A stretch of 64,000 bases of DNA from a virus (lineage: Duplodnaviria > Caudoviricetes), in the IMG/VR virus record IMGVR_UViG_3300017913_001833, positions 32,001 through 96,000 of that record; one strand, 5' to 3'. Within the stretch, counting starts at the first letter, position 1, and each line of letters begins with the position of its first letter. Shown here piece by piece: positions 42,607 to 64,000 of the stretch. The notes beneath the pieces were generated by a model. The model ran no database searches. It was not told the DNA's origin and saw nothing but the letters and a program-made list of their open reading frames with translations. A program made the translations under genes and the position numbers.

Positions 42607-42617
42607 TCCTAAAGAGT

Positions 42618-42645: not shown

Positions 42646-42648
42646 CTC

Positions 42649-42677
42649 TTGACTTTTATCGTAAATAGTACTATATT
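42649..42677 (+). promoter_or_regulatory. sigma70-type promoter
   Basis: TTGACT-N17-TATATT. Confidence 0.65.
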
Positions 42678-42709
42678 AGTAGTATAGAAACAGAGATAGG
42701 TAGCACACT

Positions 42710-46760: not shown

Positions 46761-46789
46761 TTGACGATTTTTCCATTCTATAGTATACT
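46761..46789 (+). promoter_or_regulatory. sigma70 promoter, leaderless, for the panD operon
   Basis: TTGACG-N17-TATACT, ATG 6 nt downstream. Confidence 0.75.
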
Positions 46790-46795
46790 ATAAGT

Positions 46796-47149
46796 ATGAA
46801 AGAATATGTGCAGTCTAAACTTCACAACATAAATGTAACATCTAAAGCACTTGACTATCATGGCAGTGTTACAGTTTGTAGTGAATTATTAGAAAAATCT
46901 AAAATTGATGCTTATCAAAAAGTAGATGTTGTAAATTTAAACACTGGCAACAGATGGACAACATATGCTGTTCCAGGTTCTAAAGGCAGTTTTGAACTCA
47001 ATGGTGGAGGTGCTCGGCTAGGAGAAATAGGCGACAAGTGTGTTGTGATAGCCTATCAGAGTGCTAATCAGTTCCCAGGTGCTAGTGTAATTTTCTGCGA
47101 TAAGTACAATCATATAGAGTCAACATTAGATTACCCTCAGGAGAAGTAA
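46796..47149 (+). CDS. panD: Pyruvoyl-dependent aspartate 1-decarboxylase
   Basis: SKLH, YHG|SVT cleavage site, GNRWTTY, LNGGGAR, GD. Confidence 0.85.
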   Translation: MKEYVQSKLHNINVTSKALDYHGSVTVCSELLEKSKIDAYQKVDVVNLNTGNRWTTYAVPGSKGSFELNGGGARLGEIGDKCVVIAYQSANQFPGASVIFCDKYNHIESTLDYPQEK

Positions 47150-48082
47150 ATGAAATTAAATAAAATAGAAGGTTTTGGTAACCTCGGTGTTAAAATAAGT
47201 GATATTGATCTTAACACAGCATCTGATGAAGAGTTGATGGAAGTAGGACATGAAGTTCTTCATAAACTAGTTGTAGTAGTGGATAAAGAATGTGCAAATG
47301 TGCCTGTAGAAAGATTTCACTATATACAAACTCTTTGGGGTGACCCTGTAAGATCATATGCAAGTGATAGACTGAAAGAGCGTGTAGAAAAAGAGGGTTG
47401 GAGCAAACTATATCTCGAAACAGCAAAAGACATGAAAGCAATGACTAAAGATCTAAATCATTTGCCAGGCATGATAAGAGTTACAGGCATCAAAGATGAC
47501 AAGGGAAATCGCACTGGAATGTTTGCTGATGGTGAACTAGATTGGCATAGTAATCAACAAAGTGATAATGATGGACATGCTCCTTTAATTGGATTACAAG
47601 GTGTTGAAGGCACATCAGGATCTAGCACAGAATTTTTGCAAACAGTAGATGCATTTAATGAATTAGATAGCGACACTCAAAGTGAAGTTGATCAATTAAT
47701 TGCAATACACAAGTTTGAAAAAGATCGTGTTAGTAGAGGTACAAGTGATTCACAAGCACTTATTACAAATCTACAACTTGTACCAGAAGATAATGTTGAA
47801 ATGAAAGTTACAGTGAAAGCACCTAATGGCGTAAAAGGTATGCATTTTCCATGGACAAGTATTGTAGGCTTTAAAGATTACACACAAGAAGAATTTGAAA
47901 AACTATATAACTATCTTGTAGAACACCTATGGCAAGACAAATACGTTTATAAACATCAGTGGCAAGATGGTGATATTGTATGGATGGATCAGATAGTAAC
48001 ATTACATAGACGTCCTGGTAACGATACAAGCACAAGACTATTACACAGAATGTGTAGTAACTGGAGCAAAATGAGTGTATAA
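47150..48082 (+). CDS. TauD/TfdA-family dioxygenase (H-S-N motif)
   Basis: LDWHSN, YKHQWQDGDIVWMDQIVTLHRR, RLLHR. Confidence 0.82.
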   Translation: MKLNKIEGFGNLGVKISDIDLNTASDEELMEVGHEVLHKLVVVVDKECANVPVERFHYIQTLWGDPVRSYASDRLKERVEKEGWSKLYLETAKDMKAMTKDLNHLPGMIRVTGIKDDKGNRTGMFADGELDWHSNQQSDNDGHAPLIGLQGVEGTSGSSTEFLQTVDAFNELDSDTQSEVDQLIAIHKFEKDRVSRGTSDSQALITNLQLVPEDNVEMKVTVKAPNGVKGMHFPWTSIVGFKDYTQEEFEKLYNYLVEHLWQDKYVYKHQWQDGDIVWMDQIVTLHRRPGNDTSTRLLHRMCSNWSKMSV

Positions 48083-48770
48083 GATAAAGTTAGATGAAAC
48101 ATGGCATGTAAATTTACTTGACAAATTATTAGAACACGGACTAATAATTGTAAAATGCAATGCAAGTGTTTCTCTAGACGACTTTAAATTATTAGGTAAA
48201 AGATTAGGCAAGCCTTTAATTGCAAAAAAACATACACTAGATGAAGATAGACATGTACAGTATGTAAGTGACAAAGGTTTGTTTAGCAATGATGATGTTG
48301 ATTGGCATAACGACTGGAGTTACGGTGAAGGAAATTATTTCGGTACAATGTTATACAACAATAAGAATGGTCATTTAAGTACAACTGATTTTATTGATAT
48401 GCGTAAAGCATATGATGACTATCCTGATAAAGAATTTTTACATAGAACAGAAGGAACTTACTTTCCCCCACAATATTTACACGAAACTTGCTTTACACCT
48501 AGAATGTTAAAAATTTTAGAAAAAGCAAAAGTAACAAGGAAGTTTGCACATTTACATCATGCTACAGGTGATCACGTTATGTATATTTCTCCAGGTACAT
48601 TACAGAATGACATAGATGTAAATAGTTTAGTTGAACATTGTGAAAAAGACATATACGAACATCACTGGCAAAGCAATGATATTTTAATTTATGATAATAT
48701 TAGATATATGCATAGACGGCATGCATTTGAGGGAGAAAGAGAATTATGGCGAACCCAATTCTGGATCTAA
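48075..48770 (+). CDS. TauD/TfdA-family dioxygenase
   Basis: DWHND, HHWQSNDILIYDNIRYMHRR, RELWR. Confidence 0.85.
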   Translation: MYKIKLDETWHVNLLDKLLEHGLIIVKCNASVSLDDFKLLGKRLGKPLIAKKHTLDEDRHVQYVSDKGLFSNDDVDWHNDWSYGEGNYFGTMLYNNKNGHLSTTDFIDMRKAYDDYPDKEFLHRTEGTYFPPQYLHETCFTPRMLKILEKAKVTRKFAHLHHATGDHVMYISPGTLQNDIDVNSLVEHCEKDIYEHHWQSNDILIYDNIRYMHRRHAFEGERELWRTQFWI

Positions 48771-49471
48771 GCACTAATTTTAAATTACGTTCTATTTTAT
48801 TGTTTAATCATTTACTAGCCATTTATGCGCTAATATATCATTTTAACTTTGGGCTACTTGCTCTATCATATCTATTAGGTTTCTTGCTAGGAGGTATAGG
48901 TATAAGCATAGGATATCATAGATACTTTGCACACTATAGTTTTAAGACAAACAAATTTTACAAATTAGTGTTAACTGCAATAGGACATTTTTGTTCTGTA
49001 GGTAGTGCAATTACGTGGGTTGGTATACACAGAGATCATCATGCTCATAGTGATACAAAAGAAGACCCTCACAGTCCTATATACAATGGTTGGTTAAGAA
49101 CACTAGTGCATGTATGGGAAAAGAATACGATTAATCCAATATATGTAAGACATTTGTTAAAAGATAAAACACTAAAATTTCAGCATAGATATTACTTTCA
49201 TATTTTGCTAGGAGCAATAATAATCAGTTTGTTATTGTTAGGACCAGTAACTACAGCATACATTTATAGTATTCCTGCTATTCATGTATTCTACGCAACA
49301 GGAATTGTTAATAGTATTAACCATTGGGGCGGGAAACCAAACAACATTCCTTTACTAAACATTTTTACGAGCGGCGAAAGTTATCATGCTAATCATCATG
49401 ATAATGTTGCCAATTGGCGCTTTGGATCGTTTGATCCGATGGCTCCTATTATAAGGTTAATCAAAGAATGA
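48746..49471 (+). CDS. Membrane fatty-acid desaturase (delta-9-like)
   Basis: His boxes HRYFAH, HRDHH, HANHH; DPHSP. Confidence 0.88.
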   Translation: MANPILDLSTNFKLRSILLFNHLLAIYALIYHFNFGLLALSYLLGFLLGGIGISIGYHRYFAHYSFKTNKFYKLVLTAIGHFCSVGSAITWVGIHRDHHAHSDTKEDPHSPIYNGWLRTLVHVWEKNTINPIYVRHLLKDKTLKFQHRYYFHILLGAIIISLLLLGPVTTAYIYSIPAIHVFYATGIVNSINHWGGKPNNIPLLNIFTSGESYHANHHDNVANWRFGSFDPMAPIIRLIKE

Positions 49472-50376
49472 AATATTACGAACAAAGACCAGAAGAAAAT
49501 ACATTCAAAGTTATATTTGTAGATCTCACACATAGATGTAACATGGATTGTTTCAATTGTTATCTGCCTAATAGAACAATACCAGACATGGACGAAAACA
49601 TGTTATACGATGTTTTAGAACGATTACCTGAAAGAACTTATATAAGACTTATAGGTGCAGAGCCTACTCTACGCAAAGACTTAACTGATATTATAAGAAA
49701 AGTTTTACACTATGGTCATAAGCCTAGTGTCACTACAAATGGATTAAAATTAGCAAGTTTAAAATATTGTCAAGAACTACGTGATGCTGGGTTGCGTATG
49801 GTATTACTAAGCATGAATGGTGCTGACGAACAGAAGATATATGAAAAAATAGATAATCATAGCCACGCACATGATCTTAAAATGCAAGCATTAGAAAATT
49901 GTTTCAAAACAAAAGGCTTTATAATCAACACAGGTACTATTATCGCCAAGGGTGTGAACGAACATACACTTAGAAGGCAAGCAGATATTGTATCAGACCT
50001 AGCAGAAAAATATAAGCCAAGAGTGAAACCAGTATTACGTGTAAAAAACATAGGCGACCTAGGCCGTTACATGCAAGGCAACACTATGAGCTTTGAAGAA
50101 TTAGTAGATGTTGCAAGCAATCAGTTAGGTATACCCAAAAGTACAATAATGGCAGAACGTGTAGAAGCAGGCACAAATAAAATTACTACAAATAATTACG
50201 GAGAAAGTTATTTGTTTGAATACAAAAACGTATATGTAAGATTAATCAACTGGAATGAAGAAGATGATCTAAACGACAGTGGTATAAATGGAAGCAAAAA
50301 CAGAGGACGTCTTACTGAAGATGGTATGATAGCACCTTGTTGGGAGCATATAAAACTAAATGAGTACGGTTACTAA
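49468..50376 (+). CDS. Radical SAM enzyme
   Basis: CNMDCFNC; GAEPTL; TTNG. Confidence 0.88.
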   Translation: MKYYEQRPEENTFKVIFVDLTHRCNMDCFNCYLPNRTIPDMDENMLYDVLERLPERTYIRLIGAEPTLRKDLTDIIRKVLHYGHKPSVTTNGLKLASLKYCQELRDAGLRMVLLSMNGADEQKIYEKIDNHSHAHDLKMQALENCFKTKGFIINTGTIIAKGVNEHTLRRQADIVSDLAEKYKPRVKPVLRVKNIGDLGRYMQGNTMSFEELVDVASNQLGIPKSTIMAERVEAGTNKITTNNYGESYLFEYKNVYVRLINWNEEDDLNDSGINGSKNRGRLTEDGMIAPCWEHIKLNEYGY

Positions 50377-50974
50377 ACTAGATCAAACGCACAAAGGTTT
50401 ATTTAACAATTTTGTAAATGCAGAAATAGCACAGAGAAATTTGCATTCAGATCCCTTGTGGCAAAATATTTTGTTTATTGAACCAGATAGAGATATATTT
50501 GCCATAATAGAAAATGAGAATATAAAAGCATGTATGGCAGTTGAATACATCCAAACAATGCCTTGGTGTATACACAACACATTTATTATGCATTATGAAC
50601 TAAATGCTTTCACTGGAATCAAATATACAAAAAAATTATATGAGCATGTTTTAAATTACGCTGAAACTAAAGGTATATGGAGCCATTGGTATGCAAGAAC
50701 TGACAAAATAGATCAAGCATTAAAAAGTGAAAAATATGAATATGAAGGAATAAAACAAATGTCAAGATATGGAAATATGTTGGCGAAAGTTATAGGTGAT
50801 AGATATACTATTGCAGATAGAGCATATGTCAAAGCAGGACATTTAACAGGAATACCTCTATACGATAGGCTAATGATAGGCAAACCACTTCCATATGATG
50901 TAACACTACGGCAGATAACTATTAAACAATCAGCAGTAGCAGAAGGTTTTGGCGAGCGTATTACCTATGGCTAA
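50360..50974 (+). CDS. Hypothetical protein, possible GNAT fold
   Basis: beta-beta-helix pattern FAIIENENIKACM..LYEHVLNYAETKG. Confidence 0.5.
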   Translation: MSTVTKLDQTHKGLFNNFVNAEIAQRNLHSDPLWQNILFIEPDRDIFAIIENENIKACMAVEYIQTMPWCIHNTFIMHYELNAFTGIKYTKKLYEHVLNYAETKGIWSHWYARTDKIDQALKSEKYEYEGIKQMSRYGNMLAKVIGDRYTIADRAYVKAGHLTGIPLYDRLMIGKPLPYDVTLRQITIKQSAVAEGFGERITYG

Positions 50975-52106
50975 CATATTAATAAATTATCAAAGTTCAA
51001 GTCTAAGACATACAACTCAAGAATTAAACGAGCATAATCTATATTCATGGAGAGTGCTTAATAAAGATTTCACAAAACGCACTGCTAGAGAAATACATCC
51101 TAGCTTTATTGATAATATTGACATATATGATGACCCTAGACCTATTGTTGCAAAAAAGATCAAAGCCTATATGGCAGAAAAAAATATTGATCTAATTTTT
51201 CCTTTGTACAATGATATGATGTTGCCTTACTTGTATGACAAAGTAGGCATAACTAAGAAACAGGCTAGTATTTTATCAAACAAAGAATACTACAGTAAAT
51301 TAGCCCGCCAATTGCATATTCCTGTGCCTAAAACTTATACCAACGTCCATGATGCTACATTTCCTATAATTGCTAAGCCAGTTAATGGTACAGGCAGTAT
51401 AGGCATAAAGGTCTTAACTGACTTTGATGATTTTGCACAATTTGTATCTGGCAAAGACTATCAGCATAATGATTTAGATCAATACTACATCTTCCAAGAA
51501 TTTTTACAAGGTAAGACTGTAAGTTGTGCAGGTAGGATTGTAGACGGAGAATTGCTTTATGATATATCATATGAAATAGAATCAAGTGCTTTACCTTATA
51601 GAGCAGAGACTGGATTTATCTTTTCTGCTGATATGGATCATGATAGTACATTACAATATTATATAGAAAAACTAGTTAAAGGATTAGGCTTAGATAACTG
51701 TTGCTGGATGGCTGACTTTTTATACAGTGATGGCGAATACTATTTGGTTGACTTTAGTGCCAGGCTTAGCACCAGTGCTCAAACACTTATTAAATATAGT
51801 GCTAATGTTGACTATAATAAAATTGTTGTTGATAGTTTACTATACAAAGACAAAACAAAAGTAGACTGCAAAAAAAGTGTAGTGTATAGGCATTTTAATT
51901 TACCAATGAGCGAATACAACACTGATATAGATGAGTGGCTTGTTGATGAAATACAATTACCTGCATACACTACATACCAAAATAGGATAGACATGTTGGT
52001 ACAATATAATGGTTACGCAATAACTAGTGCAGAATCATTAGCAAAAGCAGAACATAAGCATAAAAAAGTAGTTCAAACTTTAGTAAAATCTCTTAATGTA
52101 ATATAG
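50967..52106 (+). CDS. ATP-grasp ligase
   Basis: NKEY..IPVP, FPIIAKPVNGTGSIGI, FQEFLQG, YLVDFSARL. Confidence 0.82.
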   Translation: MANILINYQSSSLRHTTQELNEHNLYSWRVLNKDFTKRTAREIHPSFIDNIDIYDDPRPIVAKKIKAYMAEKNIDLIFPLYNDMMLPYLYDKVGITKKQASILSNKEYYSKLARQLHIPVPKTYTNVHDATFPIIAKPVNGTGSIGIKVLTDFDDFAQFVSGKDYQHNDLDQYYIFQEFLQGKTVSCAGRIVDGELLYDISYEIESSALPYRAETGFIFSADMDHDSTLQYYIEKLVKGLGLDNCCWMADFLYSDGEYYLVDFSARLSTSAQTLIKYSANVDYNKIVVDSLLYKDKTKVDCKKSVVYRHFNLPMSEYNTDIDEWLVDEIQLPAYTTYQNRIDMLVQYNGYAITSAESLAKAEHKHKKVVQTLVKSLNVI

Positions 52107-52777
52107 TCGGGGCGCAGATTTTTTGTGACTTTATTATCCAATCTATTGTAACAAACAAACAATACAGTCCTGTCATCATTGCTTAAATTAGCGTCACTAG
52201 CATGTAGAGTATTGGCATGCATTACTATGCAGTCTCCGGCATTAGCCACCAGCTGTAGGGCTTTATACGCTGTTTTAGACGCCATTATTCCAAGGTTTTC
52301 GTCCGCACTATGTTTAATAGTCCATGAATCTGTTTCGAATTTTTCAACAGGTAAAGTATGTGATTCTGGCAATATTTGCAATGGTCCATTATTGTCATGC
52401 ATATCATCTAATATATACAGTACACTTATAGCATGAGGATTCGGCATGCCATCCATATTATGCCAATAAGTGTAATCGCTATGCCAAGCAAACTCTCCGC
52501 CTGTTTGTGATTTTTTATAATTGAAATGACACTGGTGTATGTAAATATCATCACCTAATTGTTCTTTGATATATGGTATTGCAGGATTGTCGTATAGAAA
52601 ATCATTTATTATTTCACTACGCCAATGCGGAGCAAATATGCTTCTAAGACTACCGTTGTTTTCTAGTATGTAAGTGTCATCAGCAGTACTGTATTCTAAA
52701 CGTTTTGCTTCTGCTTTAAGTGGTGTGGGATCAAAAATTCTTTGTAGAATTTCAAAGTCTTTATTCATGCAAGCCAT
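52073..52777 (-). CDS. PhyH/EctD-like dioxygenase
   Basis: FAWHSDYTYWHNMDGMP, NGPLQILPESH, HANTLHAS..N..R. Confidence 0.85.
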   Translation of the reverse strand: MACMNKDFEILQRIFDPTPLKAEAKRLEYSTADDTYILENNGSLRSIFAPHWRSEIINDFLYDNPAIPYIKEQLGDDIYIHQCHFNYKKSQTGGEFAWHSDYTYWHNMDGMPNPHAISVLYILDDMHDNNGPLQILPESHTLPVEKFETDSWTIKHSADENLGIMASKTAYKALQLVANAGDCIVMHANTLHASDANLSNDDRTVLFVCYNRLDNKVTKNLRPDYITLRDFTKV

Positions 52778-52794
52778 TCCAAGTCAGTAGTAAA

Positions 52795-52825
52795 AGTATT
52801 TATTGATAAATATATTTAGGAGACA
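52795..52825. promoter_or_regulatory. Back-to-back TAAATA promoter cassette
   Basis: AGTATTTA-TTGA-TAAATA-TATTTAGGAGACA. Confidence 0.65.
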
Positions 52826-52829
52826 TGAT

Positions 52830-53204
52830 ATGAAAAAAGTTACCGTTAAATTTACTTCAGCTACAGATGACATTGAAACATTTGTCACTGGGAAATTTGA
52901 TAGCCTAGATGATGCAACTTTAGCAAGTCTGCATTCAACAATAGGTACAAACACAACTAATGGAAATATTTGGTTAAGACATTATTGCATTGAAGGTAGT
53001 CAAGCTCATATGATTTATATCCTAGATGATGCTGATGCAGTGACAGCAGTACAGCCTGCTCTAACACTAATGGCAGGTATTGAAGGATATGTTGAAACTG
53101 TAACTGAAGATATGACTTTTGATGAATTCAGTGCTTATGCAGCAGATCACAGAGAAACTGAAATCGTACATGCACGTAAAACTGCATTAGATGAGGCTAG
53201 TTAA
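52830..53204 (+). CDS. Acidic hypothetical protein (124 aa)
   Basis: AGGAG SD, own TAAATA; no enzyme motif. Confidence 0.7.
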   Translation: MKKVTVKFTSATDDIETFVTGKFDSLDDATLASLHSTIGTNTTNGNIWLRHYCIEGSQAHMIYILDDADAVTAVQPALTLMAGIEGYVETVTEDMTFDEFSAYAADHRETEIVHARKTALDEAS

Positions 53205-54041
53205 TAGCTCTTTAACTTCTATTTCGTAAACACCATTATACAGTAATCTTACATCTTCAATACTAGAAAATACCTGTTCCATTATAGGAGATTCTTCTAG
53301 CATTTCCCATCCTGTATATTTTTGTCTAGGAACAAAATTATAATTAGTAGAATAAAGTTTATGCTTGCTAGTCCGTGTGCTTAGTTTACCCGGACGTTGG
53401 TTGTTAACAAGTTCTTGTATTATAGGATCTCTCGCGAATGCAACTACCATTTCGGGAGTGTAACGTAAAAAGTCTGGTGTGCCGTCTATGTTGTTTATTT
53501 CATACCAACGGTTATAAGAATTTACTCTTTCAGTTTCTTGCCATTTCCATATACCGTCATAATTTTTGAAGTACGGTTCACCATTGGCCATAATCACAGT
53601 CCCAGACACTTTAGTAATACCTTTCATAACAGGAATCATTTGATAAGCGCAACATTGAGCTTTGTGTGCAATGTCTTTAAATTCTCCGCTGTATACTAAA
53701 TCTTCAACATCAACATTTATTACTTGTGGAGTAATGCCATTAATTTTACAAAAATCATATGCATAATTTGTATCATGCTCGTTCCAGTGTCCGTAATCTA
53801 TTATTGCTACATCAAATTGTATGCCTGCAGACTGGAAAACTCTGATCATAAACTCGCTGTCAATACCTCCGCTAAATAGAATAGTAAGAGAGTGTAGTGC
53901 AGTTTGCTCAACAAGTTTTGCGGATCTGATACATTCATTAGTAAATGAATCTATTATATTGTTTTTACACTTGTCCAAATGAACTGTCCAGCTACTGCCA
54001 TTACCTGATTGTTTGAAATAATTATTATAAGAAAGATCCAT
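53187..54041 (-). CDS. PP-loop adenine-nucleotide alpha-hydrolase (asparagine-synthase-like)
   Basis: ILFSGGIDSE; C-terminal PRQKYTGWE. Confidence 0.7.
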   Translation of the reverse strand: MDLSYNNYFKQSGNGSSWTVHLDKCKNNIIDSFTNECIRSAKLVEQTALHSLTILFSGGIDSEFMIRVFQSAGIQFDVAIIDYGHWNEHDTNYAYDFCKINGITPQVINVDVEDLVYSGEFKDIAHKAQCCAYQMIPVMKGITKVSGTVIMANGEPYFKNYDGIWKWQETERVNSYNRWYEINNIDGTPDFLRYTPEMVVAFARDPIIQELVNNQRPGKLSTRTSKHKLYSTNYNFVPRQKYTGWEMLEESPIMEQVFSSIEDVRLLYNGVYEIEVKELLTSLI

Positions 54042-54713
54042 ATGAAAGCATTTAGTCCAATAGATTATAAGTTCGACAAAGAAGCAATTTACAAAGACTT
54101 AATGGAAATGAAAATCTTCGACAAAAGTTTCCTTGCTACAGTTATTTACAAAGACGGCAGGAGTAAGTATGATAAAGCTGGTGTGTTTGACAAGTATGAA
54201 GATGTAACACATTATGATGAGGAGGGCGAACTTGTAAAAGGCGATTACAATACCTTTGTAACATATAACTTTACACAGTGTCCTGATATTCCTGAAACAG
54301 CAGACAACAGTTTTACAGAGACTGAAGATGGTAGAAAACCTGTTTGGCATGTGTATGATCTACCGTGGTTCTGGAAAAGCAACACTCCAAAAAGTATAAA
54401 AGAGGCTGTCAACAATTTAGGATTATCTTATATAACTTGTGTAAGGCTAGTAGGACAAACACCTCCTAGTAAAGGCATTGTTCATGTAGACGCAGATTAC
54501 AAAGACAATTTACGTTACTACAAAAAAGGCGGAGTAAGTATTACTCTTAACATAAGCGATGGTGGTGGACATCTACAATACCTTACTCCTCAAGGTATGC
54601 AAGAAGTAGATGAATCTTTATACGACTGTTGGCATTTCAATGATGCACTACAACATAGGACTACAGAAATTACAAGCCCTAGAATACAAATTAGAGTATT
54701 TGGAAGAAAATGA
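54042..54713 (+). CDS. Fe/2OG oxygenase-like protein
   Basis: HVD...FNDALQH..RIQIRVFG. Confidence 0.65.
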   Translation: MKAFSPIDYKFDKEAIYKDLMEMKIFDKSFLATVIYKDGRSKYDKAGVFDKYEDVTHYDEEGELVKGDYNTFVTYNFTQCPDIPETADNSFTETEDGRKPVWHVYDLPWFWKSNTPKSIKEAVNNLGLSYITCVRLVGQTPPSKGIVHVDADYKDNLRYYKKGGVSITLNISDGGGHLQYLTPQGMQEVDESLYDCWHFNDALQHRTTEITSPRIQIRVFGRK

Positions 54714-55420
54714 CAGACTGGCGCAATTTAGTTTTTTCACCATTAGACTTGCCAAGTCCACCCGAAGTAGATATGGATGCTTTTATCGAGTGGCATGCTA
54801 AACAGAAAAAGTTTATGCTACAACATAATCAAAACAAAGTCAACAGTACAAATATATACGGAGGCTATTGTTGGCACATAAGTTGGGCAATCTGGTGGAA
54901 TACATATAAATTAGACAACCCTTGGATTTGCGGCTTTGAGAAATATTTTCCTGAGCTAGTCGACTATATAAACATGTTTCCTTTTACGCAAATAAAAAGT
55001 ATCAGTTTCCTTAATCAGATAGGAGGCGCAAAAGTTGAACCTCATAGTGATCCTGATAAAATGTGGGGTATGCGTTTTTACTTAAAAAATAAAACCAAAG
55101 ATGCTCTATACTTTAGTAGAATGAAAGAACCTCGTAATGAACGCATAGCAACAATGGAAGATGCAGATGGCAATCCTTTAAGCAAACGTAGAGATCATTT
55201 AGATTTTTGTAGAGATGAAAAAATTTATGCACGTTTTCCTAAAGACGAATGTGCTTGGATGCTTAACAGTTACAGAGCATGGCATGGTTTAGATGAAAAC
55301 GCTTCACCAACAGGAAGCAGAATTACATGTGCTATAATCGGCGACTACGACAAAGACAAACTTTTTAACTTGCTAGACTCAAGCACAAAAGAATATAAAG
55401 ATTATCAAATTTGGTTTTAA
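54710..55420 (+). CDS. Fe/2OG oxygenase-like protein
   Basis: PHSD...LNSYRAWHG..RIT. Confidence 0.65.
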   Translation: MTDWRNLVFSPLDLPSPPEVDMDAFIEWHAKQKKFMLQHNQNKVNSTNIYGGYCWHISWAIWWNTYKLDNPWICGFEKYFPELVDYINMFPFTQIKSISFLNQIGGAKVEPHSDPDKMWGMRFYLKNKTKDALYFSRMKEPRNERIATMEDADGNPLSKRRDHLDFCRDEKIYARFPKDECAWMLNSYRAWHGLDENASPTGSRITCAIIGDYDKDKLFNLLDSSTKEYKDYQIWF

Positions 55421-55421
55421 C

Positions 55422-56042
55422 ATGACAATACTATACACACCTTTAGATTTACCAGCACTAGACTTTGACAGAGAAGAATTTATAAAATGGCACGAAGCAA
55501 AAAGATGGCGTAACAGAGATAACATTAATTACGACACAAAAGATTTTATTGCTCCGTGGTTAGTAAGTTTTGCGTATCATAAAGACTATGGTTGGTGTAA
55601 CAGATTTATGAAAGTCATTCCAAACTTTCAAGACATATTGTACAATCATCTTCCATACTATGATATTACATATGTAAACTTTTTAGAACAAAAGATTCCT
55701 TGTCAACTACATCAAGATGTTGGCAGTCGTCCTGAAAGAGAAGACGAACCAGGTGCATACAAAGCATTTATGGTTTATGATGCACCATTAATGTATTTCC
55801 AAGTAGGAGAAGATAAGAAAAATCTTAGTGAAGAAAAGTTATATATTCAACATCCTAATGAACTTACGAAATGGTTTGCAATTAATAACTATGATGCATA
55901 CCATGCAGCTGACTTGCCAAGCAAGGGTCAACGCAAAATTATAATGACAATATTAGGAAAATTAGATAAAGAAAAACACAAACAGATACTAGATAGAAGT
56001 TTAGAAAAGTATAAAGATTATCTAATTACCTGTAAAACTTAA
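55422..56042 (+). CDS. Fe/2OG oxygenase-like protein (paralogue of the upstream gene)
   Basis: Shared PLDLP..F.EWH N-terminus and LD.S...YKDY C-terminus; HQD...NNYDAYHA. Confidence 0.65.
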   Translation: MTILYTPLDLPALDFDREEFIKWHEAKRWRNRDNINYDTKDFIAPWLVSFAYHKDYGWCNRFMKVIPNFQDILYNHLPYYDITYVNFLEQKIPCQLHQDVGSRPEREDEPGAYKAFMVYDAPLMYFQVGEDKKNLSEEKLYIQHPNELTKWFAINNYDAYHAADLPSKGQRKIIMTILGKLDKEKHKQILDRSLEKYKDYLITCKT

Positions 56043-56634
56043 TTAGATCAAATTGGTCGGGCTTTTTATTTCTACTGCTTATTGCAATATCAGGTTTTAC
56101 ATTAGCATGATCCCAACCTAGTTCTACTCCATCCTTATATACTTTTCTAATTGGATCTGTGTCTAATTGATCTATATATCCTATACCAAGAATAATGGCG
56201 GCTGTTTTTCCAGACCTATCTAATTTTTTTGCAACTTTACCAGGTTCAATACATCCACAAAAGCCTGTTTGTAAACCTATTTCTTCGGCGGCAACCATTG
56301 CTATTGTTGCACTTACTATACAGTCTGCATATGTTTCTTTATCTTTATCAGATGCTATCCATGTTAAAATCACAGGAGCAAGAACTTGTCCGTTGTACCT
56401 TCTTACACCATCGCCTTCTGCGCCTCTTACTCCATTTAGGCAACAGGTATTTTTATAGTATAACCAATTTTTAAATTCTTCTGATTTAGAAACAAAAACT
56501 TCATATTCAAAATTTCCATTTTTAGATGGAGCATTGTAAAGACAATCTAGAACGTATTTTAATTTTTTATCCTCAACTTGAGAATCACTCCACCATTTTG
56601 CAGTTATACGTTTTTGTAAAAGGTCTTTTATCAT
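56026..56634 (-). CDS. Nitroreductase-family flavoprotein
   Basis: RITAKWW, APSKNG, AAEEIGLQTGFCGC, LGIGY. Confidence 0.8.
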   Translation of the reverse strand: MIKDLLQKRITAKWWSDSQVEDKKLKYVLDCLYNAPSKNGNFEYEVFVSKSEEFKNWLYYKNTCCLNGVRGAEGDGVRRYNGQVLAPVILTWIASDKDKETYADCIVSATIAMVAAEEIGLQTGFCGCIEPGKVAKKLDRSGKTAAIILGIGYIDQLDTDPIRKVYKDGVELGWDHANVKPDIAISSRNKKPDQFDLIKFYR

Positions 56635-58100: not shown

Positions 58101-58852
58101 TATGTTTTGATTAGTTTGATTACCCAAGCACTTGGGTCTAATTCCCACCATTTGTGTTGAAAGTTCCATCTACCAGGTTTAGCATGATGATTGTTATGCC
58201 AACCTTCACCCCATGTAATAAGTGCAAGCCACCAAGTGTTACGGCTGTCTTCTTTTGTTTCGTAGTTTCTATATCCCCACATGTGATTTATGTAGTTGCT
58301 TAGAACACTGATCCAAATTTGTATTCCCATTGGAATAATACCTGCAAATATTAAAACATTTATGCCGCCTGCAATGTATAAAACTGCAAGCCATACAAGT
58401 AGTATAGCATAATAATAATTATGAAGCAAGAGATGAAATTTATCAGTGATAAGTTTTCTTACTGACCATTTATTCATTTCAAATTCATACTTAGGTATTA
58501 ACACATTCCACACACCGAGATGCGGACTATGTGGATCTCCATCTTTATCAGCATTTTTATGATGATCATTGTGTATAGCAACCCATCCAATACTACTCCC
58601 TGTTCCGCCTATAGCACCAAAAAAGGAAAACAAATATTCCATCCACTTATATCTAAATTTAAATGATCTATGTGTCAGATAGCGATGAAATGTAACTGTA
58701 ATACCTAAACATCCTGTTAAAAAATAGACAGCAATACTTAATGCCCACCATGATAGACTAGGTGCAAAGAACAGCATATAAACAATAGCCAATGTTGCTA
58801 CTGCCTGTATGTATGGGAAGTAGGTTGTATTTGCTCTAAAAATGTCTCTCAT
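58100..58852 (-). CDS. Membrane fatty-acid desaturase (delta-9-like)
   Basis: HRYLTH, HNDHH, GEGWHNNHH; TAAATA 5 nt upstream (58858-58863). Confidence 0.9.
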   Translation of the reverse strand: MRDIFRANTTYFPYIQAVATLAIVYMLFFAPSLSWWALSIAVYFLTGCLGITVTFHRYLTHRSFKFRYKWMEYLFSFFGAIGGTGSSIGWVAIHNDHHKNADKDGDPHSPHLGVWNVLIPKYEFEMNKWSVRKLITDKFHLLLHNYYYAILLVWLAVLYIAGGINVLIFAGIIPMGIQIWISVLSNYINHMWGYRNYETKEDSRNTWWLALITWGEGWHNNHHAKPGRWNFQHKWWELDPSAWVIKLIKT

Positions 58853-58871
58853 GATAATATTTATCCTGGTT

Positions 58872-59708
58872 TTATAGGGTTATCATATGATCAGGCAATA
58901 TATCGCCTTCTAGCAACATGTCAAAAGGATGTTTTACTCCAAAGAACTTGTTTGTTGCCCATGTTTTTTCAATAGGATCATAGTCAAACCAAGGACTACA
59001 TCCTATTACAAGATGTGTTCTAGTGTTGTCAGTTTTTTCTGTGCTAAAAACTTTGTGTGCTACATTTGTATCCCATGTATACAAGTTACCTACTTTTAAA
59101 TTGTAAGGATCTTTGTTTTCCATTTGAAAATAAAATTCTTTACTAGTTGTAAGCGGAATGTTCAATCTAAGATTTATAAAAATACTTTCATCCCTATGCC
59201 AACCTACCTTAGGATCATCTGGAAAGTCTTTTGCAACAAGTGTGCTTATTCTACTTCTAACTATAGTAGGTTTAATTTGTGCAAGTAGATTTCCTAACTC
59301 TCCTTCTATACTACAAGGTGTAGGTTTTACAAATCCAAATGTGTCGTAATAACTGTCTTTTACATATTCATGATTGTGCGTTTGTGCATAAAAGAATTCA
59401 CCTGTCTTATTCTTAGGTGTACCTATACTGTTAACATTTTCATCTATATTATCTTGATGATTTGGATTACTACGCAAACTTAAACTTTTATAAAAATTTA
59501 CGTTTTGATTTTTAGTTTGCCAACCAACTGGATTGTATTTTTGTAAAATCTCTTGTACACTATTTTTTAACGCTTCAATATCATAGTTAAACTGTAAAGA
59601 TAAGTCACTATGTTTTGATTCAACTAAATGTTTGTTAAGTTTAGTTGCTTTTGTTAACCATTCGTGGACAGTAAATGCCTTAGGACATAATTCAACTGGG
59701 TACTTCAT
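58872..59708 (-). CDS. Aspartyl/asparaginyl beta-hydroxylase-like oxygenase
   Basis: RSRI..WHRD..LNIPL..WDTNVAH..RTHLV. Confidence 0.72.
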   Translation of the reverse strand: MKYPVELCPKAFTVHEWLTKATKLNKHLVESKHSDLSLQFNYDIEALKNSVQEILQKYNPVGWQTKNQNVNFYKSLSLRSNPNHQDNIDENVNSIGTPKNKTGEFFYAQTHNHEYVKDSYYDTFGFVKPTPCSIEGELGNLLAQIKPTIVRSRISTLVAKDFPDDPKVGWHRDESIFINLRLNIPLTTSKEFYFQMENKDPYNLKVGNLYTWDTNVAHKVFSTEKTDNTRTHLVIGCSPWFDYDPIEKTWATNKFFGVKHPFDMLLEGDILPDHMITL

Positions 59709-60271
59709 AGACTTTCCTTGTATTGCTTGATATTTAATTCAGCAACTGTTTGAAGTGTATATTGTACTTCTACTTTTTGATCTAGCCATGTTAGATTATT
59801 ATATATTTTTCTTGGGCCACCAAACGTACTTGCTTTGCCTTCACTCATACGTCTTAGAAAATTAACAAGTCGATGATTATAATCATTAAAAGTCATCCAA
59901 ACTTTTTCATAACCTTGTGCATGCCAATAGTCTATCTGCAAAGGGAATATATTTCTTGCTTGACACCAGTGGCCTCCTCCTCTATAATCTGGATGAGTAA
60001 ATGCCCTAACTCCAATAATAGGTATATCTTTCCACAAATACGTGCCACTCATAGCAATAGGTTTAACATCACGTACGATGTTAAACATATCAAATCTTTG
60101 CTTTTTATGTATTAGATGCAACAAAGTATAAGATTTGTTTTCCCAGCCATTAATATCATAATTTTTATAGGCATTTTCTTTTAGACTATATGCATACTCA
60201 CTTAGATATTGTAAATCTAAATTTTGAATATCTGTAATTTTTCCGCGGTATAACGAATCAGTTTTGATCAT
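59705..60271 (-). CDS. GNAT-like acyltransferase
   Basis: RAFTHPDYRGGG acyl-CoA motif A; MTFNDYN. Confidence 0.65.
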   Translation of the reverse strand: MIKTDSLYRGKITDIQNLDLQYLSEYAYSLKENAYKNYDINGWENKSYTLLHLIHKKQRFDMFNIVRDVKPIAMSGTYLWKDIPIIGVRAFTHPDYRGGGHWCQARNIFPLQIDYWHAQGYEKVWMTFNDYNHRLVNFLRRMSEGKASTFGGPRKIYNNLTWLDQKVEVQYTLQTVAELNIKQYKESL

Positions 60272-60274
60272 AAA

Positions 60275-60772
60275 CTAGATTGCTCCTACACTAACCAACT
60301 TCTTAAATGTGTAAGGAAATTTGCATTGTAGCACAAATGCACTACGCCAGCCATCTGTGTTATTTTCATAACCATGCCAAGAGCTACAATCAAATGCAGT
60401 AGGACAATCTATCAGCACACTATCAATTTTTTTGCCGTCAATACTCTCATAAAAATCTAAAGGTGTGCTATAGTTGTCTAAAGGAAAAAGTATATTGACT
60501 GTGCGTTTAATTTCACCCGCTGCACTATCTTCGTGTGCTTCTACAATACTATTAGCTTGTGTTCTTATAAAACTACAACTATAGAATATTTTACTCATTG
60601 CAAATTGATCTAATATCTCTTTAACATAATAATTTTTCATATCATATGCACTATGAACTTGCTGAGGAACTTTTCGTCCTATTTCTTTATATCCATCACT
60701 ATAGGTTAAACTTTGTGCAATCTCTAACAATGCATCTTTAGAATATTTTATATGAGGTAATTGTTTATACAT
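60275..60772 (-). CDS. Fe/2OG oxygenase-like protein
   Basis: AHED..NILFPL..FDCSSWHG..R. Confidence 0.65.
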   Translation of the reverse strand: MYKQLPHIKYSKDALLEIAQSLTYSDGYKEIGRKVPQQVHSAYDMKNYYVKEILDQFAMSKIFYSCSFIRTQANSIVEAHEDSAAGEIKRTVNILFPLDNYSTPLDFYESIDGKKIDSVLIDCPTAFDCSSWHGYENNTDGWRSAFVLQCKFPYTFKKLVSVGAI

Positions 60773-61491
60773 TAACTTTCAGCCGCTTCTAGAATGTTCA
60801 AAACTCTTAATACATTTTCATAAGTCTTAGGAATGTTGAGAACTAAATGTATACTGCCGTGCTGATAACTATGTGTCCTATGTTGTTTACGGGTATCAAT
60901 ATAGTAACACCGGCCTTCTTCAATACTGCGTATACTGTAATCATGCTCCCATTGATAACTTTGATGTCCTGTATTTGTTAAAAATGCTACTATACGAAAA
61001 CATTTGCGTTGTAGTAACACACCATCTCTATGGCTTGGAAACCATCCACCTTTGTTAACTTTTACAAGTGTGCAACGTCCTAACTTAGGAAAGTAATCTA
61101 ATATAGGATGTAAGCTAGGAGTATCATGATATAATTGTGTAGGTGTATCGAAGTCAAGTTCATTTAATTTACGACCAGCTCGTTTTTGTGCTTCTGGCAT
61201 ACTAATACTATCTTGTGGTGTATCACCAGGTAACCCTACCATGTTAAGTCCGTCTCTATCATTAAGACTACCTTCACGGTGTAAGTAAGGAACCCACTGT
61301 CCGTCATATTTAGAAATTTCTTTTCTAAATTCACTTAGGTTAATTTTAATTGAAAGAGGAACAAAATCACCAATTGCATCAAGTTGCATTTCAGTAGCAA
61401 TATCCAAAAGTTTTGGATGTGAAAACGTACCGTCTTTAAATGATTGTAAATAATCAATTTTAAGTTTTTTCTTTTCTTCTTCTGTTATCAT
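60772..61491 (-). CDS. Aspartyl/asparaginyl beta-hydroxylase-like oxygenase
   Basis: GGWFPSHRD..YIDTRKQH..IHLVLN. Confidence 0.72.
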   Translation of the reverse strand: MITEEEKKKLKIDYLQSFKDGTFSHPKLLDIATEMQLDAIGDFVPLSIKINLSEFRKEISKYDGQWVPYLHREGSLNDRDGLNMVGLPGDTPQDSISMPEAQKRAGRKLNELDFDTPTQLYHDTPSLHPILDYFPKLGRCTLVKVNKGGWFPSHRDGVLLQRKCFRIVAFLTNTGHQSYQWEHDYSIRSIEEGRCYYIDTRKQHRTHSYQHGSIHLVLNIPKTYENVLRVLNILEAAES

Positions 61492-62180
61492 TGTATCTCC
61501 GTAAAAATACTTAGTCCTATTTTTCTGTCAACCCCTAGCTTTGTAAAGTCACTTGAACAATGTATTCGTAAACTATCAAAAGCAATTATACTTCCTATAG
61601 TCCAAGGAAAAAATCCTTTCACACTTAATCCTTCAAGCCAATTATCTTTCAAATGAGTTAAGACATTTCTAATAGGTTGCGGTATTCCATTTTTATTTGT
61701 GTTTTCTACTTCACTATAATCATATAATGGTTGATTGTAATAAAATGGTATATCTAAATCTTGTTCACCGTTGAACAATTTTACAGGACCGCCATAATAG
61801 TATTGGTCAAACATAACTAGTTTTATTTTGTTACAATCTCCTTTATCTACCCATAAAGGTATAGTAAATGCTTTGTACACATCTGGATATTCAAAACTAT
61901 CATCTATGTGTAGCACATGAGGACTAGTAACATCAAAATAATGTGCAGACCTTACTTTGAAATTTCCAAACTGTTTACGTAACAAATCTAGTATGTCATC
62001 AATTACGTCTTCACCTTCTTCAACATACACAACTTTAGGACCTGTATTCTTTTCTATCTTTTCACTTGCATGATAATATTCAAGCAAACTTGTAATTTTG
62101 TCTTGATTAATTACATTTAATAATTGTGTAGATTCAGAATGTGTTTTCTTAATCCTGTTTATCTGCTCTGTTGTTCTCAT
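61488..62180 (-). CDS. Fe/2OG oxygenase-like protein
   Basis: HID..FTIPL..FDSLRIH..KIGLSIF; likely start MRTTEQ at 62180. Confidence 0.62.
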   Translation of the reverse strand: MRTTEQINRIKKTHSESTQLLNVINQDKITSLLEYYHASEKIEKNTGPKVVYVEEGEDVIDDILDLLRKQFGNFKVRSAHYFDVTSPHVLHIDDSFEYPDVYKAFTIPLWVDKGDCNKIKLVMFDQYYYGGPVKLFNGEQDLDIPFYYNQPLYDYSEVENTNKNGIPQPIRNVLTHLKDNWLEGLSVKGFFPWTIGSIIAFDSLRIHCSSDFTKLGVDRKIGLSIFTEIQ

Positions 62181-63288
62181 CTTTAACTTTCGGTATCTTA
62201 CTATCTGCAGAACTAACACAGCTCTTAGTAATACACGTTTTTGGCTCTTTAAACAGTTTAAAGCCTGTCTCGATGTTACCAAGGGGTGCATCATGGCAAG
62301 AATAACTTCTTTTTACCGAACCGTCAGGCTCCCGTATTATTATTCCGCTAAAACCGGCGTTACACCGCCATCCTTCGAATTTATTAAAATTAAAGGCATT
62401 AAAGCGTTCTGCTTGGTCCATATACCACTTTTTACCTGTAGAGTCTTTTAGCTCTACTTGCATGTGCCATGGAACACTTGCATCATTCTTACCTGTTACT
62501 CCTGCAGGGATTTGGAATGTTGGTTTTGGTCTGCCTTCCCATTGCCTTTTGCTTTCTGTATAGGCTCGCTGGGGCATTCCGTTCCAGAGTCTGTCGAGTT
62601 GGTCTTTTGTGTATCCTTCAACAACTCGTGATGCTGTTGGATCAGACTGGGGTTTGAGAGTGACATTAATGCCTCTGGAATGGAAAAATAAGGCATTGCT
62701 CCAGTCTCGTTCAAACCATTCTGGAACCATGACCATATTGATCGTAACTTGGATATCATGTTCTTGACATAGGATGAGTTTATTTGCAAACTCTTCCATC
62801 CTTTCAGTAGTATTTACATGTTCTGTGTGTAAACTAGCTGTAATAGAGGCCCTATGGAAAGGTTTTGCATACTCTACATATGTTTCAAACCACTTCATAG
62901 GCCTGCTACAATTACTTGTCATATGTATGCTTGTATAATTTGTATTTCCTACATCATCTGCTAGATGTTTTAATATGTCCAAGTATCCAGGATGGAAAGT
63001 AGGTTCTCCTCCCGACAAGGAGAAATGGAAAGAATTGAAGCCGTTGAGTCTGGCTTGACGTTTGATTTCATCCACTGTAAGCAAGCAGAGCTCGGTAGGA
63101 CGGTGGTCTTTACGATCACTTCTTGCGTAAGGCCAACAGTAGGAACATCTGTAGTTACAGAACCTTCCGAGTAACCAGGATACAGTAAATAGATCGCGAT
63201 AAAGCAGAGTACGTTGACCCACAGAGACAATGTCATCAAAAGGGATCTTAGTAAAGTCATAATTACTCCATTTCAAATCTTCATTCAT
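62149..63288 (-). CDS. Radical SAM enzyme with C-terminal SPASM/twitch-like Cys cluster
   Basis: CNYRCSYC, SGGEPT; CNAG..SCHDAPLGNI..CITKSC. Confidence 0.88.
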   Translation of the reverse strand: MNEDLKWSNYDFTKIPFDDIVSVGQRTLLYRDLFTVSWLLGRFCNYRCSYCWPYARSDRKDHRPTELCLLTVDEIKRQARLNGFNSFHFSLSGGEPTFHPGYLDILKHLADDVGNTNYTSIHMTSNCSRPMKWFETYVEYAKPFHRASITASLHTEHVNTTERMEEFANKLILCQEHDIQVTINMVMVPEWFERDWSNALFFHSRGINVTLKPQSDPTASRVVEGYTKDQLDRLWNGMPQRAYTESKRQWEGRPKPTFQIPAGVTGKNDASVPWHMQVELKDSTGKKWYMDQAERFNAFNFNKFEGWRCNAGFSGIIIREPDGSVKRSYSCHDAPLGNIETGFKLFKEPKTCITKSCVSSADSKIPKVKDENNRADKQD

Positions 63289-63293
63289 AATAT

Positions 63294-63322
63294 ACTATAA
63301 CACCACTACAGCTATTTGTCAA
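63294..63322 (-). promoter_or_regulatory. sigma70 promoter, leaderless
   Basis: Minus strand TTGACA-N17-TATAGT, ATG 5 nt downstream. Confidence 0.75.
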
Positions 63323-63323
63323 T

Positions 63324-63351
63324 AGTATTTACGATAAATATTTAGGAGACA
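63324..63351. promoter_or_regulatory. Back-to-back TAAATA promoter cassette (second copy)
   Basis: AGTATTTA-CGA-TAAATA-TTTAGGAGACA. Confidence 0.65.
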
Positions 63352-63358
63352 GTACAAA

Positions 63359-63940
63359 ATGACTTTGCTAGACTACGCAAAAACTATAGAACCTTGTCAA
63401 AGGAACTGGGACGAAGATTACGAAGTTCCAGATGAACATATAGATTACATATTAGACGTATGCACAACAGTTCCCACAAAACAAAACCTAAACACCTATA
63501 GCTTAGTTACTATTACAGACAGAGAAACTATAGAAAATATATATAAAAAGTGTGCTTTTGATCCACAAGGCTATGCAGCAACTTATCTAAAAAACAGCCA
63601 AGTAAATGCAAATGCTTTGTTCATATGGTGCAATGGCACAGACAAGGCTGAATTCAAAGATGATGTAGATATTGCAGTTGGTATAAGTTCTGGTGCTGCT
63701 GCACTTGCGGCAGCTGAACTAGGTTACAAAACAGGTTTTTGCAAATGTTTTGAACCAAGACCTCTAAGAAAAATTCTTAGAAAAGCAGGTGTAAAAGATT
63801 ACAATCATGGTATACTAATGTTAGGGGTAGGTAAACCTAACGAGGATTTTCCTAGACATTACATTGTACGTGATGGAAGATACGCAGGTTTGCAACCTCC
63901 TAAAGGTGACAAAAATATTTTGCGTCAAAGGATTAAGTAG
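63359..63940 (+). CDS. Nitroreductase-family flavoprotein
   Basis: CQRNW, PTKQN, AAELGYKTGFCKC, LGVG. Confidence 0.8.
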   Translation: MTLLDYAKTIEPCQRNWDEDYEVPDEHIDYILDVCTTVPTKQNLNTYSLVTITDRETIENIYKKCAFDPQGYAATYLKNSQVNANALFIWCNGTDKAEFKDDVDIAVGISSGAAALAAAELGYKTGFCKCFEPRPLRKILRKAGVKDYNHGILMLGVGKPNEDFPRHYIVRDGRYAGLQPPKGDKNILRQRIK

Positions 63941-64000
63941 ATAATACACCTACGTCAAAATGATTAGCAACAACAGATTTATAATTTTCTTTATACCTAC

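Follow-up and report, generated by a model that had tools for sequence, protein, structure and literature searches.

An array of radical-SAM enzymes between tail-fibre modules of a marine jumbo phage, possibly for editing a glycan decoration

WbdA/WbdD of Escherichia coli O9a (PMC3482155) and enzymes of the WbbB type (PMC11231755) are polymerase-ruler-terminator enzymes for O antigens whose synthesis depends on an ABC transporter. Their plan joins, on one polypeptide, two glycosyltransferase (GT) domains to a methyltransferase at the end by way of a spacer whose length varies. We found an enzyme of the same general plan in a ~31-kb locus of a virus contig (IMG/VR record IMGVR_UViG_3300017913_001833; 146,380 bp; CheckV completeness, 39%), where it accompanies an array of radical S-adenosylmethionine (rSAM) enzymes and an arm of other tailoring enzymes. 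The likeness to the bacterial enzymes is architectural and not one of sequence, and the spacer of the phage enzyme is a 23-aa short-helix repeat, not shown to be a coiled coil. We analyzed bases 32001-96000 of the contig, a stretch of 64,000 bp that we refer to as the window. An original prediction, made from the letters of the window, had placed an island of tailoring-enzyme genes next to a tail-fibre gene and suggested that the island might continue past the window edge. It does. The left edge of the island was correct, the right edge was merely that of the window, and the locus runs from 46796 to ~77870, that is, ~14 kb farther. Positions beyond the edge are given as window-equivalent coordinates (positions in sequence L004 + 63000), and genes are named by their lower coordinate.

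Other known systems resemble other parts of the locus. In the capsule of Campylobacter jejuni HS:2, the decarboxylase Cj1436 and the ATP-dependent amidoligase Cj1438 decorate glucuronate after its entry into the chain (PMC11800397). The panD operon of the phage is similar in its logic: the amine comes from decarboxylation of an amino acid, and once the chain is polymerized an ATP-dependent ligase could link this amine to the carboxylate of a sugar. Unlike the C. jejuni decarboxylase, PanD is a pyruvoyl enzyme of the kind that acts on aspartate, and the phage ATP-grasp protein is likened to Cj1438 by logic and not by comparison of the two. Mycobacteriophage virions are glycosylated by phage-encoded GTs, according to the account of Freeman 2023 (PMC10527164) given in PMC12619734, and GT and methyltransferase genes lie beside structural genes, as they do here. 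With a virion protein as acceptor, such a system can do without an exporter. Giant-virus glycan gene clusters are another precedent for virus-encoded glycan decoration. The mycobacteriophage and giant-virus systems are not known to contain rSAM arrays, expansions of Fe(II)/2-oxoglutarate-dependent (Fe/2OG) oxygenases or a panD operon.

T4-like cyanophages have hyperplastic regions rich in 2OG-Fe(II) oxygenases, that is, variable regions near tail-fibre genes with many small oxygenase genes. Unlike these regions, the locus here has a backbone of a GT/methyltransferase enzyme and rSAM anchors, and part of its arm is a strictly syntenic operon. Large numbers of rSAM genes have been described in TARA_ERS488813_N000010, a T4-like marine environmental viral genome with 12 such genes, which are discussed only as clients of viral Fe-S assembly genes (Nishimura 2017, PMC5332604). 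This was the only mention of such numbers that we found in the literature. The dozen genes are similar to what we found, in a genome that may or may not be of the same lineage, and PMC5332604 gives no locus architecture or function. To these descriptions we add a quantified three-anchor architecture, variation in repeat length of the GT-methyltransferase enzyme, a panD cassette that is optional but syntenic, and negative results for QueC and for fibre composition.

We found that the locus sits between two convergent tail-fibre modules and has three layers. The first is a lineage-wide core consisting of the GT-A/GT-A/repeat/methyltransferase enzyme, a conserved 74-aa protein and three anchor rSAM enzymes, one of which has an N-terminal twitch domain. 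The second layer is made of extra twitch/SPASM rSAM enzymes that lie between the anchors and change rapidly. The third layer is an arm that not every relative has; it encodes oxygenases, desaturases, nitroreductases, PP-loop enzymes and methyltransferases, and here it includes a conserved panD operon. We favor the reading that this is a late-expressed locus that assembles and heavily edits a glycan-type decoration, and we put the probability of that reading at about one half.

All 11 rSAM genes of the contig fall in this one locus, and the CxxxCxxC motif is intact in 11 of 11. Eight of them lie past the window edge. Genes for a second PP-loop protein and for proteins of 74 and 854 aa are there as well, and a minus-strand fibre operon follows. 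Three genes beyond the window passed the model NF033640 (N_Twi_rSAM; cut-off, 170 bits), an uncharacterized subfamily with no known substrate: 66054 (212 bits), 68009 (429 bits) and 71409 (203 bits). Their products have a Cys-rich N-terminal domain ahead of CxxxCxxC. In 68009 the motif is at residue 150 and is preceded by Cys at residues 13, 31, 32, 94 and 97; the pattern in 66054 and 71409 is similar. The other eight rSAM genes were below the cut-off and belong to other subfamilies, and the three inside the window scored at most 43 bits.

We compared the array to related loci, a first set of which was fetched around the N-twitch gene with 10-kb flanks. The anchors 73516, 68009 and 62149 were in constant order in 38 of the 38 related loci that hold all three. 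The number of rSAM genes was 5-12 per locus. The variable rSAM genes (175 genes) fell into 47 sequence clusters, and there were 27 architectures in the 38 loci. In more distant relatives (54-58% identity; binned with Bdellovibrionia), the three anchors adjoin GT-like and methyltransferase-like genes with nothing between, and this gene set looks like a minimal module. All three anchors occur together in the distant relatives L089 and L092. The family is also arrayed in an apparent bacterial chromosome, since a 917-kb contig of the same Bdellovibrionia metagenome-assembled genome (MAG) has ~17 rSAM genes in ~30 kb (L100-L102; G002:C1:736001-790000; GC 40%), most of which pass NF033640. The genes there are interleaved with genes for unknown proteins of 400-680 aa and for a StrB1-like inosamine-phosphate amidinotransferase (E = 1e-29). 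PDB sequence searches with the three anchors gave marginal best matches, none of them useful, and those with three neighbours from the bacterial array gave no useful match.

By alignment, the large enzyme that accompanies the anchors is made of a tandem pair of GT-A-like domains bearing DxD motifs, a run of helical repeats of 23 residues and, at the C terminus, a class-I SAM-dependent methyltransferase domain. Its structure was predicted with a pLDDT of 74.6. Foldseek matched the model to the two-GT-A chondroitin polymerase K4CP (E = 4e-6), to LH3 and to many class-I methyltransferases (E ~1e-4). Homologues are 843-1222 aa long, and their lengths follow the repeat count, with two or three copies in this phage and at least 12 in L016. 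A UDP-glucose dehydrogenase gene is directly 5' of the GT gene in one relative (L025), and the combined repertoire of the relatives' arms and arrays includes CTP_transf_3, sulfotransferase, UDP-glucose dehydrogenase and several methyltransferases. The 74-aa protein has invariant ATNNNI..FN..AHHNS..WY motifs, matches no known family and is 73-82% identical to its homologues across the relatives. A complex prediction of this protein with anchor rSAM 1 scored 0.01, which counts neither for nor against binding.

The part of the locus inside the window, 46796-63940, is filled by 23 open reading frames (ORFs). The original prediction had read from the sequence a PanD, two TauD proteins, two membrane desaturases, three rSAM enzymes (one B12-type), an ATP-grasp ligase, an EctD-like PhyH and two nitroreductases, and Pfam and NCBIfam support these. 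Proteins above the Pfam gathering score were PanD (46796), TauD (47150, 48075), FA_desaturase (48746, 58100), ATP-grasp (50949), PhyH (52073), Radical_SAM (49468, 56631, 62149) and nitroreductase (56026, 63359). No island protein reached an NCBIfam equivalog cut-off. The 46796 product matched Pfam PF02261 with 99.3 bits (cut-off, 25) and has the Gly-Ser self-processing site (...DYHGSVTV...), but scored 77.8 bits against the NCBIfam equivalog (cut-off, 106); we consider it PanD-like, with aspartate as a putative substrate. The top NCBIfam match of the PhyH protein was ectoine hydroxylase (123.6 bits; cut-off, 336). The best matches of 56631 were B12-binding rSAM families, every one under its cut-off, and those of the ATP-grasp ligase were PylC and DdaF. 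In both desaturase-like proteins we found HxxHH boxes and 2-4 segments that span the membrane.

Other assignments held in part. A PP-loop ATPase had been predicted at 53187, and we found the PP-loop region and a sub-threshold Pfam match but no full-length QueC match. The same was true of the second PP-loop protein, the 322-aa product of a gene that was missed by simple longest-ORF calling and recovered in an ORF scan of the gaps. With QueC models, each of the two matched only at the PP-loop region or at a C-terminal Cys motif (E = 5e-4 to 0.05), and neither had an NCBIfam QueC match or a PDB sequence match. The two GNAT-like proteins and about seven more Fe/2OG oxygenases that had been proposed were not confirmed by family models; motifs, faint matches and structural or language-model neighbours are in their favor. 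HxD...H motifs are present in 54009, 54710, 55422, 58872, 60275, 60772 and 61488, with faint 2OG or Asp_Arg_Hydrox Pfam matches for 58872 and 60275. All of the top 50 structural matches to 54710 were Fe/2OG (DSBH) dioxygenases (Z at most 6.2), which is merely suggestive because the model was poor (pLDDT 48.8). Language-model neighbours carried Asp_Arg_Hydrox in 11% of members for 60772 and Acetyltransf_1 in 20% for 50360, and a homologue of 59705 in L099 had a weak Acetyltransf_1 match. Single-sequence hhalign among the island proteins found nothing beyond obvious paralogues, such as 54710 and 55422 (97% probability). Ten island ORFs had no Pfam or PHROG match.

The arm is conserved in order where it is present. 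The ATP-grasp ligase has ~95 homologues, and the order Mtd_N fibre gene, PanD, TauD, TauD, (desaturase), rSAM, 204-aa protein, ATP-grasp was kept in contexts with ATP-grasp identities of 93%, 55% and 45%. These contexts continue, in order, with PhyH, a small ORF, the PP-loop gene, three 2OG-like genes, the B12 rSAM gene and a desaturase. Identities of the panD operon genes were 93-99% in L094, 50-88% in L096/L097 and 32-62% in L098/L099. Across syntenic relatives, the arm genes were 32-88% identical; the fibre gene itself, at the same position in L094, L096 and L098, was just 35-37% identical in the diverged ones. The block from 58872 to 62294 runs in the same direction as the array and is tightly packed against it; it is shared with L035 and L088 (64-82% identity), and its homologues in L099 are 35-64% identical. 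Whether the gene set is conserved beside fibre genes had been posed as a check, with random shuffling among relatives as the result that would argue against an island. The order of the arm beside the fibre gene is fixed in relatives down to 45% identity and random shuffling was not observed; thus that objection fails. A chimeric join to bacterial DNA had also been raised. The DNA appears to be of the phage, with no sign of such a join: both flanks are syntenic in relatives, and codon usage in the arm and the core is similar (cosine 0.967; GC 33.5% in the arm vs 37.9% in the core).

The arm was absent from L072, L078 and L046, where anchor 3 directly abuts homologues of the left flank (44587, 44331, DUF2201 and the MoxR ATPase). 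The panD-led arm is an optional yet strictly syntenic cassette and, judged by its gene order, a selected unit. The non-rSAM genes of the relatives' arms and arrays fell into 175 clusters. Among 148 representative proteins, nitroreductase, Asp/Arg hydroxylase, QueC-like PP-loop, methyltransferases, desaturases and TauD recurred, and nitroreductase was the commonest family in the arms (8 clusters).

The locus has a motif of the late type. TAAATA occurs at 98 sites on both strands of the contig, 20 of which are in the intergenic 2.2% of bases, a ~9-fold enrichment. It precedes the fibre genes and the island genes at 52777, 63288 and 74598 (PhyH 52073 and anchors 62149 and 73516), and none of the listed sites is before PolB or DNA-metabolism genes. 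TAAATA is likely the core of the late promoter of this lineage. Overall, the motif is under-represented on this 36%-GC contig; it sits 8-60 nt before structural genes. The island had been said to use TAAATA as well as sigma-70 promoters. The TAAATA motif is real. Sigma-70-like sites occurred at chance frequency (83 found vs 85.8 expected), although there are two good ones, in the gaps before panD (46761-46789) and before anchor 62149 (TTGACA-17-TATAGT). The frequent strand switches that had been reported are real, and the array runs in the same direction as the fibre operon.

The glycan-decoration reading is the best supported because the GT/methyltransferase enzyme is the invariant partner of the anchors and sugar-nucleotide enzymes recur at the locus. 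The absence of an exporter, a scaffold synthase and a precursor peptide also favors it, as do the late-type motif and the co-orientation with structural genes. The original prediction had found no nonribosomal peptide synthetase or polyketide synthase core and no transporter, and we too saw none among the island proteins. It had named a small molecule, a lipid, and a decoration of the virion or host surface as possible products, with no choice among them; the genes that point to a glycan lie past the window edge or in relatives. Late in infection, the GT-GT-repeat-methyltransferase enzyme would build a chain of sugars. If it works as WbdA/WbdD and WbbB do, its repeat spacer might set the length of the chain and methylation might cap it. 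The rSAM and Fe/2OG enzymes would edit the sugars or their activated precursors, for example by oxidation, epimerization, C-methylation or decarboxylation. PanD would supply beta-alanine, which could be modified by the TauD-type hydroxylases, the rSAM enzyme and the acyltransferase, and the ATP-grasp ligase could join the modified beta-alanine by an amide bond, for example to the carboxylate of a uronic acid. The order of these steps is provisional, and the acceptor may be a virion fibre or capsid, the host envelope or something else.

Several points weigh against a decorated glycan. The glycan, the acceptor and the enzyme activities are all deduced from genes, and none was observed. No characterized rSAM enzyme is close, and matches to NCBIfam equivalogs were far below their cut-offs. 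Tailoring of peptides or proteins is just as typical a setting for SPASM/twitch rSAM enzymes, Asp/Asn hydroxylases, nitroreductase-fold dehydrogenases, ATP-grasp ligases and GNATs. The two integral-membrane desaturases point to lipid substrates and not to soluble sugars, and a lipid component stays open. The island of this contig is without a nucleotide-sugar synthesis gene; the UDP-glucose dehydrogenase and the cytidylyltransferase come from relatives only. In addition, the arm is absent from three relatives and is therefore dispensable for the core function, so that it may not feed the same product. A ruler and a terminator are proposed by analogy. In the spacer we see short-helix repeats and not a demonstrated coiled coil, and no kinase domain, ABC exporter (Wzm/Wzt) or polyprenol-linked initiating enzyme was found among the island proteins scanned; the contig is 39% complete and host enzymes could serve.

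It is also conceivable, though unlikely, that the locus is a hot-spot of unrelated auxiliary metabolic genes at the junction of two convergent late operons. The enzymes would then act separately on host metabolism: the desaturases on membrane lipids, PanD on CoA supply, and the oxygenases and nitroreductases on stress or nutrients. The optional arm, its GC below that of the core, the strand switches, the many non-rSAM clusters, another TauD gene outside the island at 24978 and the general resemblance to the oxygenase-rich hyperplastic regions of cyanomyophages are consistent with this. However, genes of the panD-to-desaturase block are arranged and oriented alike in relatives down to 45% identity, a small set of enzyme families turns up at the locus again and again throughout the lineage, the genes overlap or abut as in operons, and every rSAM gene of the contig is found here. 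Somewhat less probable still is a protein-modifying system, or one like those for peptides that are made by ribosomes and modified after translation (RiPPs), in which the enzymes would cross-link, hydroxylate or acylate the fibre, the capsid, the 74-aa protein or an unrecognized peptide. Partial NCBIfam matches to peptide maturases (sactipeptide, ranthipeptide, cyclophane and anSME types) suggest such a function, as do the Asp_Arg_Hydrox-type oxygenases that recur in the relatives' arms, the position between fibre genes and the conserved 74-aa ORF beside anchor 1. The conserved partner of the anchors, however, is a GT/methyltransferase enzyme, and there was no PqqD/RRE domain, leader peptidase or exporter among ~40 proteins scanned with Pfam. 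Nor was a hypervariable small ORF found; the scan of the gaps gave only the missed PP-loop gene (ORFs of <60 aa in the relatives were not surveyed), and the 74-aa protein is too well conserved to account for the variation in enzymes. Thioether cross-links in the fibres, or their hydroxylation in the manner of collagen, are made less likely by the composition of the fibre proteins, in which Cys is 0-0.8% and collagen-like repeats are absent.

Two further alternatives seem improbable. Phage DNA hypermodification clusters pair rSAM enzymes with other tailoring enzymes (PMC8989533), and glycans can be added to DNA as hypermodifications by GTs of viruses (Pyle 2024, as reported in PMC12619734), so that GT domains and tailoring enzymes might build complex glycan or amino-acid adducts on modified bases, much as happens in the hypermodification of thymidine. 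Yet the locus is among fibre genes with a late-type motif and not among replication genes, and its PP-loop proteins do not match QueC. A thymidylate-synthase-type hydroxymethylase (PF00303) was not found on the 39%-complete contig; the kinase and aGPT-Pplase families were not searched. The least probable of the alternatives, by a shade, is a diffusible small molecule, either beta-alanine-containing and peptide-like or aminocyclitol-like, for host takeover or competition. Here the likeness is to natural-product cassettes with amino-acid ligases, which the panD operon resembles (its ATP-grasp ligase best matched PylC and DdaF), and to streptomycin biosynthesis, whose amidinotransferase StrB1 has a counterpart in the bacterial array of the same rSAM family. 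An exporter, a resistance gene and a scaffold synthase are missing from the locus, and a conserved two-domain GT with a spacer suits a polymer better.

Within the glycan-decoration reading, the variation among loci suggests a more specific and more tentative possibility, which we would not bet on. The chain made by a conserved glycan synthase, with its repeat-length spacer, may be patterned in a strain-specific way by rapid exchange of rSAM and Fe/2OG enzymes and by cassettes such as the panD operon, on the fibres or on the surface of the infected cell, as a combinatorial editing array. If so, turnover of enzymes would drive host recognition or evasion of defence, as variation in tail-fibre sequence does, and several rSAM reactions on carbohydrates that are not yet known would exist. 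If a decorated glycan is made at all, no virus-encoded glycan pathway yet seen in a phage would be richer in enzymes. The locus would then also be an extensive natural collection of uncharacterized rSAM and Fe/2OG reactions, and phage-host specificity would gain a new axis in addition to the fibres. None of the ~35 enzymes at the locus has a known substrate. The three-anchor core and the syntenic panD operon are small, defined gene sets that can be directly expressed and assayed.

Relatives of the locus are common in the ocean. The 470-aa N-twitch rSAM enzyme has homologues at 80-86% identity in 206 IMG/VR contigs and in >2,000 metagenome proteins. With more than 2,000 near-identical ocean-metagenome relatives of an anchor enzyme, the locus is therefore that of a very common marine phage lineage. 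The PolB of the contig shares 46-50% aa identity with its nearest counterparts, from two jumbo phages, Sinorhizobium Phosso and Agrobacterium Atu_ph07, and Rak2-like phages come next. The locus belongs to an uncultured jumbo phage that is abundant in the sea and has Atu_ph07 and Rak2 as relatives. Megablast of the island and the core against a phage collection found no nucleotide match among cultured phages, and tblastn with anchor 3 against phages found no match. The GT-methyltransferase enzyme had a sole match in tblastn against phages, in Ralstonia phage RsoM2USA, where all neighbours are annotated 'hypothetical'. Two short contigs that bear the array (L087 and L088; 85% identity) were binned in MAGs of Flavobacteriales (Arcticimaribacter and Crocinitomicaceae). 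This binning is a weak hint that the host group is Flavobacteriales, and the GC of 35-37% fits.

Table 1. Genes of the locus and its borders, in window or window-equivalent coordinates.
Feature	Coordinates	Strand	Support and remarks
Tail-fibre gene, Mtd_N domain	45564..46748	+	Pfam E 1.5e-11; PHROG tail fibre; left boundary, last gene of the plus-strand structural block
panD operon: PanD, TauD, TauD, membrane desaturase, rSAM (302 aa), 204-aa GNAT-like candidate, ATP-grasp ligase	46796..52106	+	Pfam, NCBIfam
EctD-like PhyH Fe/2OG dioxygenase	52073..52777	-	Pfam PhyH E 2.3e-25; 53-58% identity in relatives
133-aa protein	52803..53204	+	No Pfam/PHROG match; positional homologues 33-41% identical
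PP-loop ATP pyrophosphatase, QueC-like only at the PP-loop	53187..54041	-	Sub-threshold QueC and ATP_bind_3 matches; 53% identity in relatives
Three candidate Fe/2OG oxygenases (234, 236, 206 aa)	54009..56042	+	HxD...H motifs; 62-86% identity in relatives
Nitroreductase-family flavoenzyme	56026..56634	-	Pfam E 3.2e-5
B12-binding-type rSAM, 512 aa	56631..58169	-	Pfam Radical_SAM; CxxxCxxC at residue 210; 65-78% identity in relatives
Membrane di-iron desaturase/hydroxylase, 250 aa	58100..58852	-	FA_desaturase E 7.5e-21; four transmembrane-like segments, HxxHH boxes; 81-85% identity
Five small genes: 278 aa (2OG-like), 188 aa (GNAT-like), 165 aa (Asp/Arg-hydroxylase-like), 239 aa (2OG-like), ~230-268 aa (2OG-like)	58872..62294	-	Faint Pfam matches, motifs, protein-atlas neighbours
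Anchor rSAM 3, 379 aa	62149..63288	-	Pfam; median identity of 83% among 59 loci; the lineage-wide array has no conserved gene after it
Second nitroreductase-family gene	63359..63940	+	Pfam E 2.7e-7; paralogue of 56026
rSAM gene over the window edge	63933-65192	-	In the window 63933..64000, the last ~22 codons and stop
PP-loop gene, 322 aa, SGGADS, C-terminal CxxCxxC	65089-66057 (L004:2089-3057)	-	Overlaps the end of the neighbouring rSAM gene by ~100 nt
rSAM genes	Lower coordinates 66054, 68009 (anchor 2, N-twitch), 69440, 70468, 71409, 72458, 73516 (anchor 1)	-	
169-aa gene	After 73516, before 75093	-	
74-aa gene	75093-75317 (L004:12096-12317)	-	In 62 loci its place is between the first anchor and the GT-methyltransferase gene
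854-aa GT-A/GT-A/repeat/methyltransferase gene	75304-77868	-	
Fibre-associated and fibre genes	77868 to ~102167	-	Fibre genes include three paralogues whose products have Collar and intramolecular-chaperone domains

Several features lie outside the locus. The third TauD-family gene of the window (24978-25859, plus strand) is beside the DNA polymerase gene; over 305 aa it shares 24% identity with its paralogue 47150. Just 5' of the Mtd_N fibre gene is a pair of genes encoding a MoxR-type AAA ATPase and a DUF2201 metallopeptidase/VWA protein (41521-44020, plus strand). This pair is kept at the same position in relatives and is also present on a contig binned with Dojkabacteria (L091). On the far side of the locus, an ORF of 4971 aa that is nearly free of Cys lies 5' of the fibre paralogues (L005/L006; window-equivalent 87252-102167, minus strand). 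An ORF of 2495 aa at the other side of the contig (genome 8384-15871) has short segments in common with the fibre genes.

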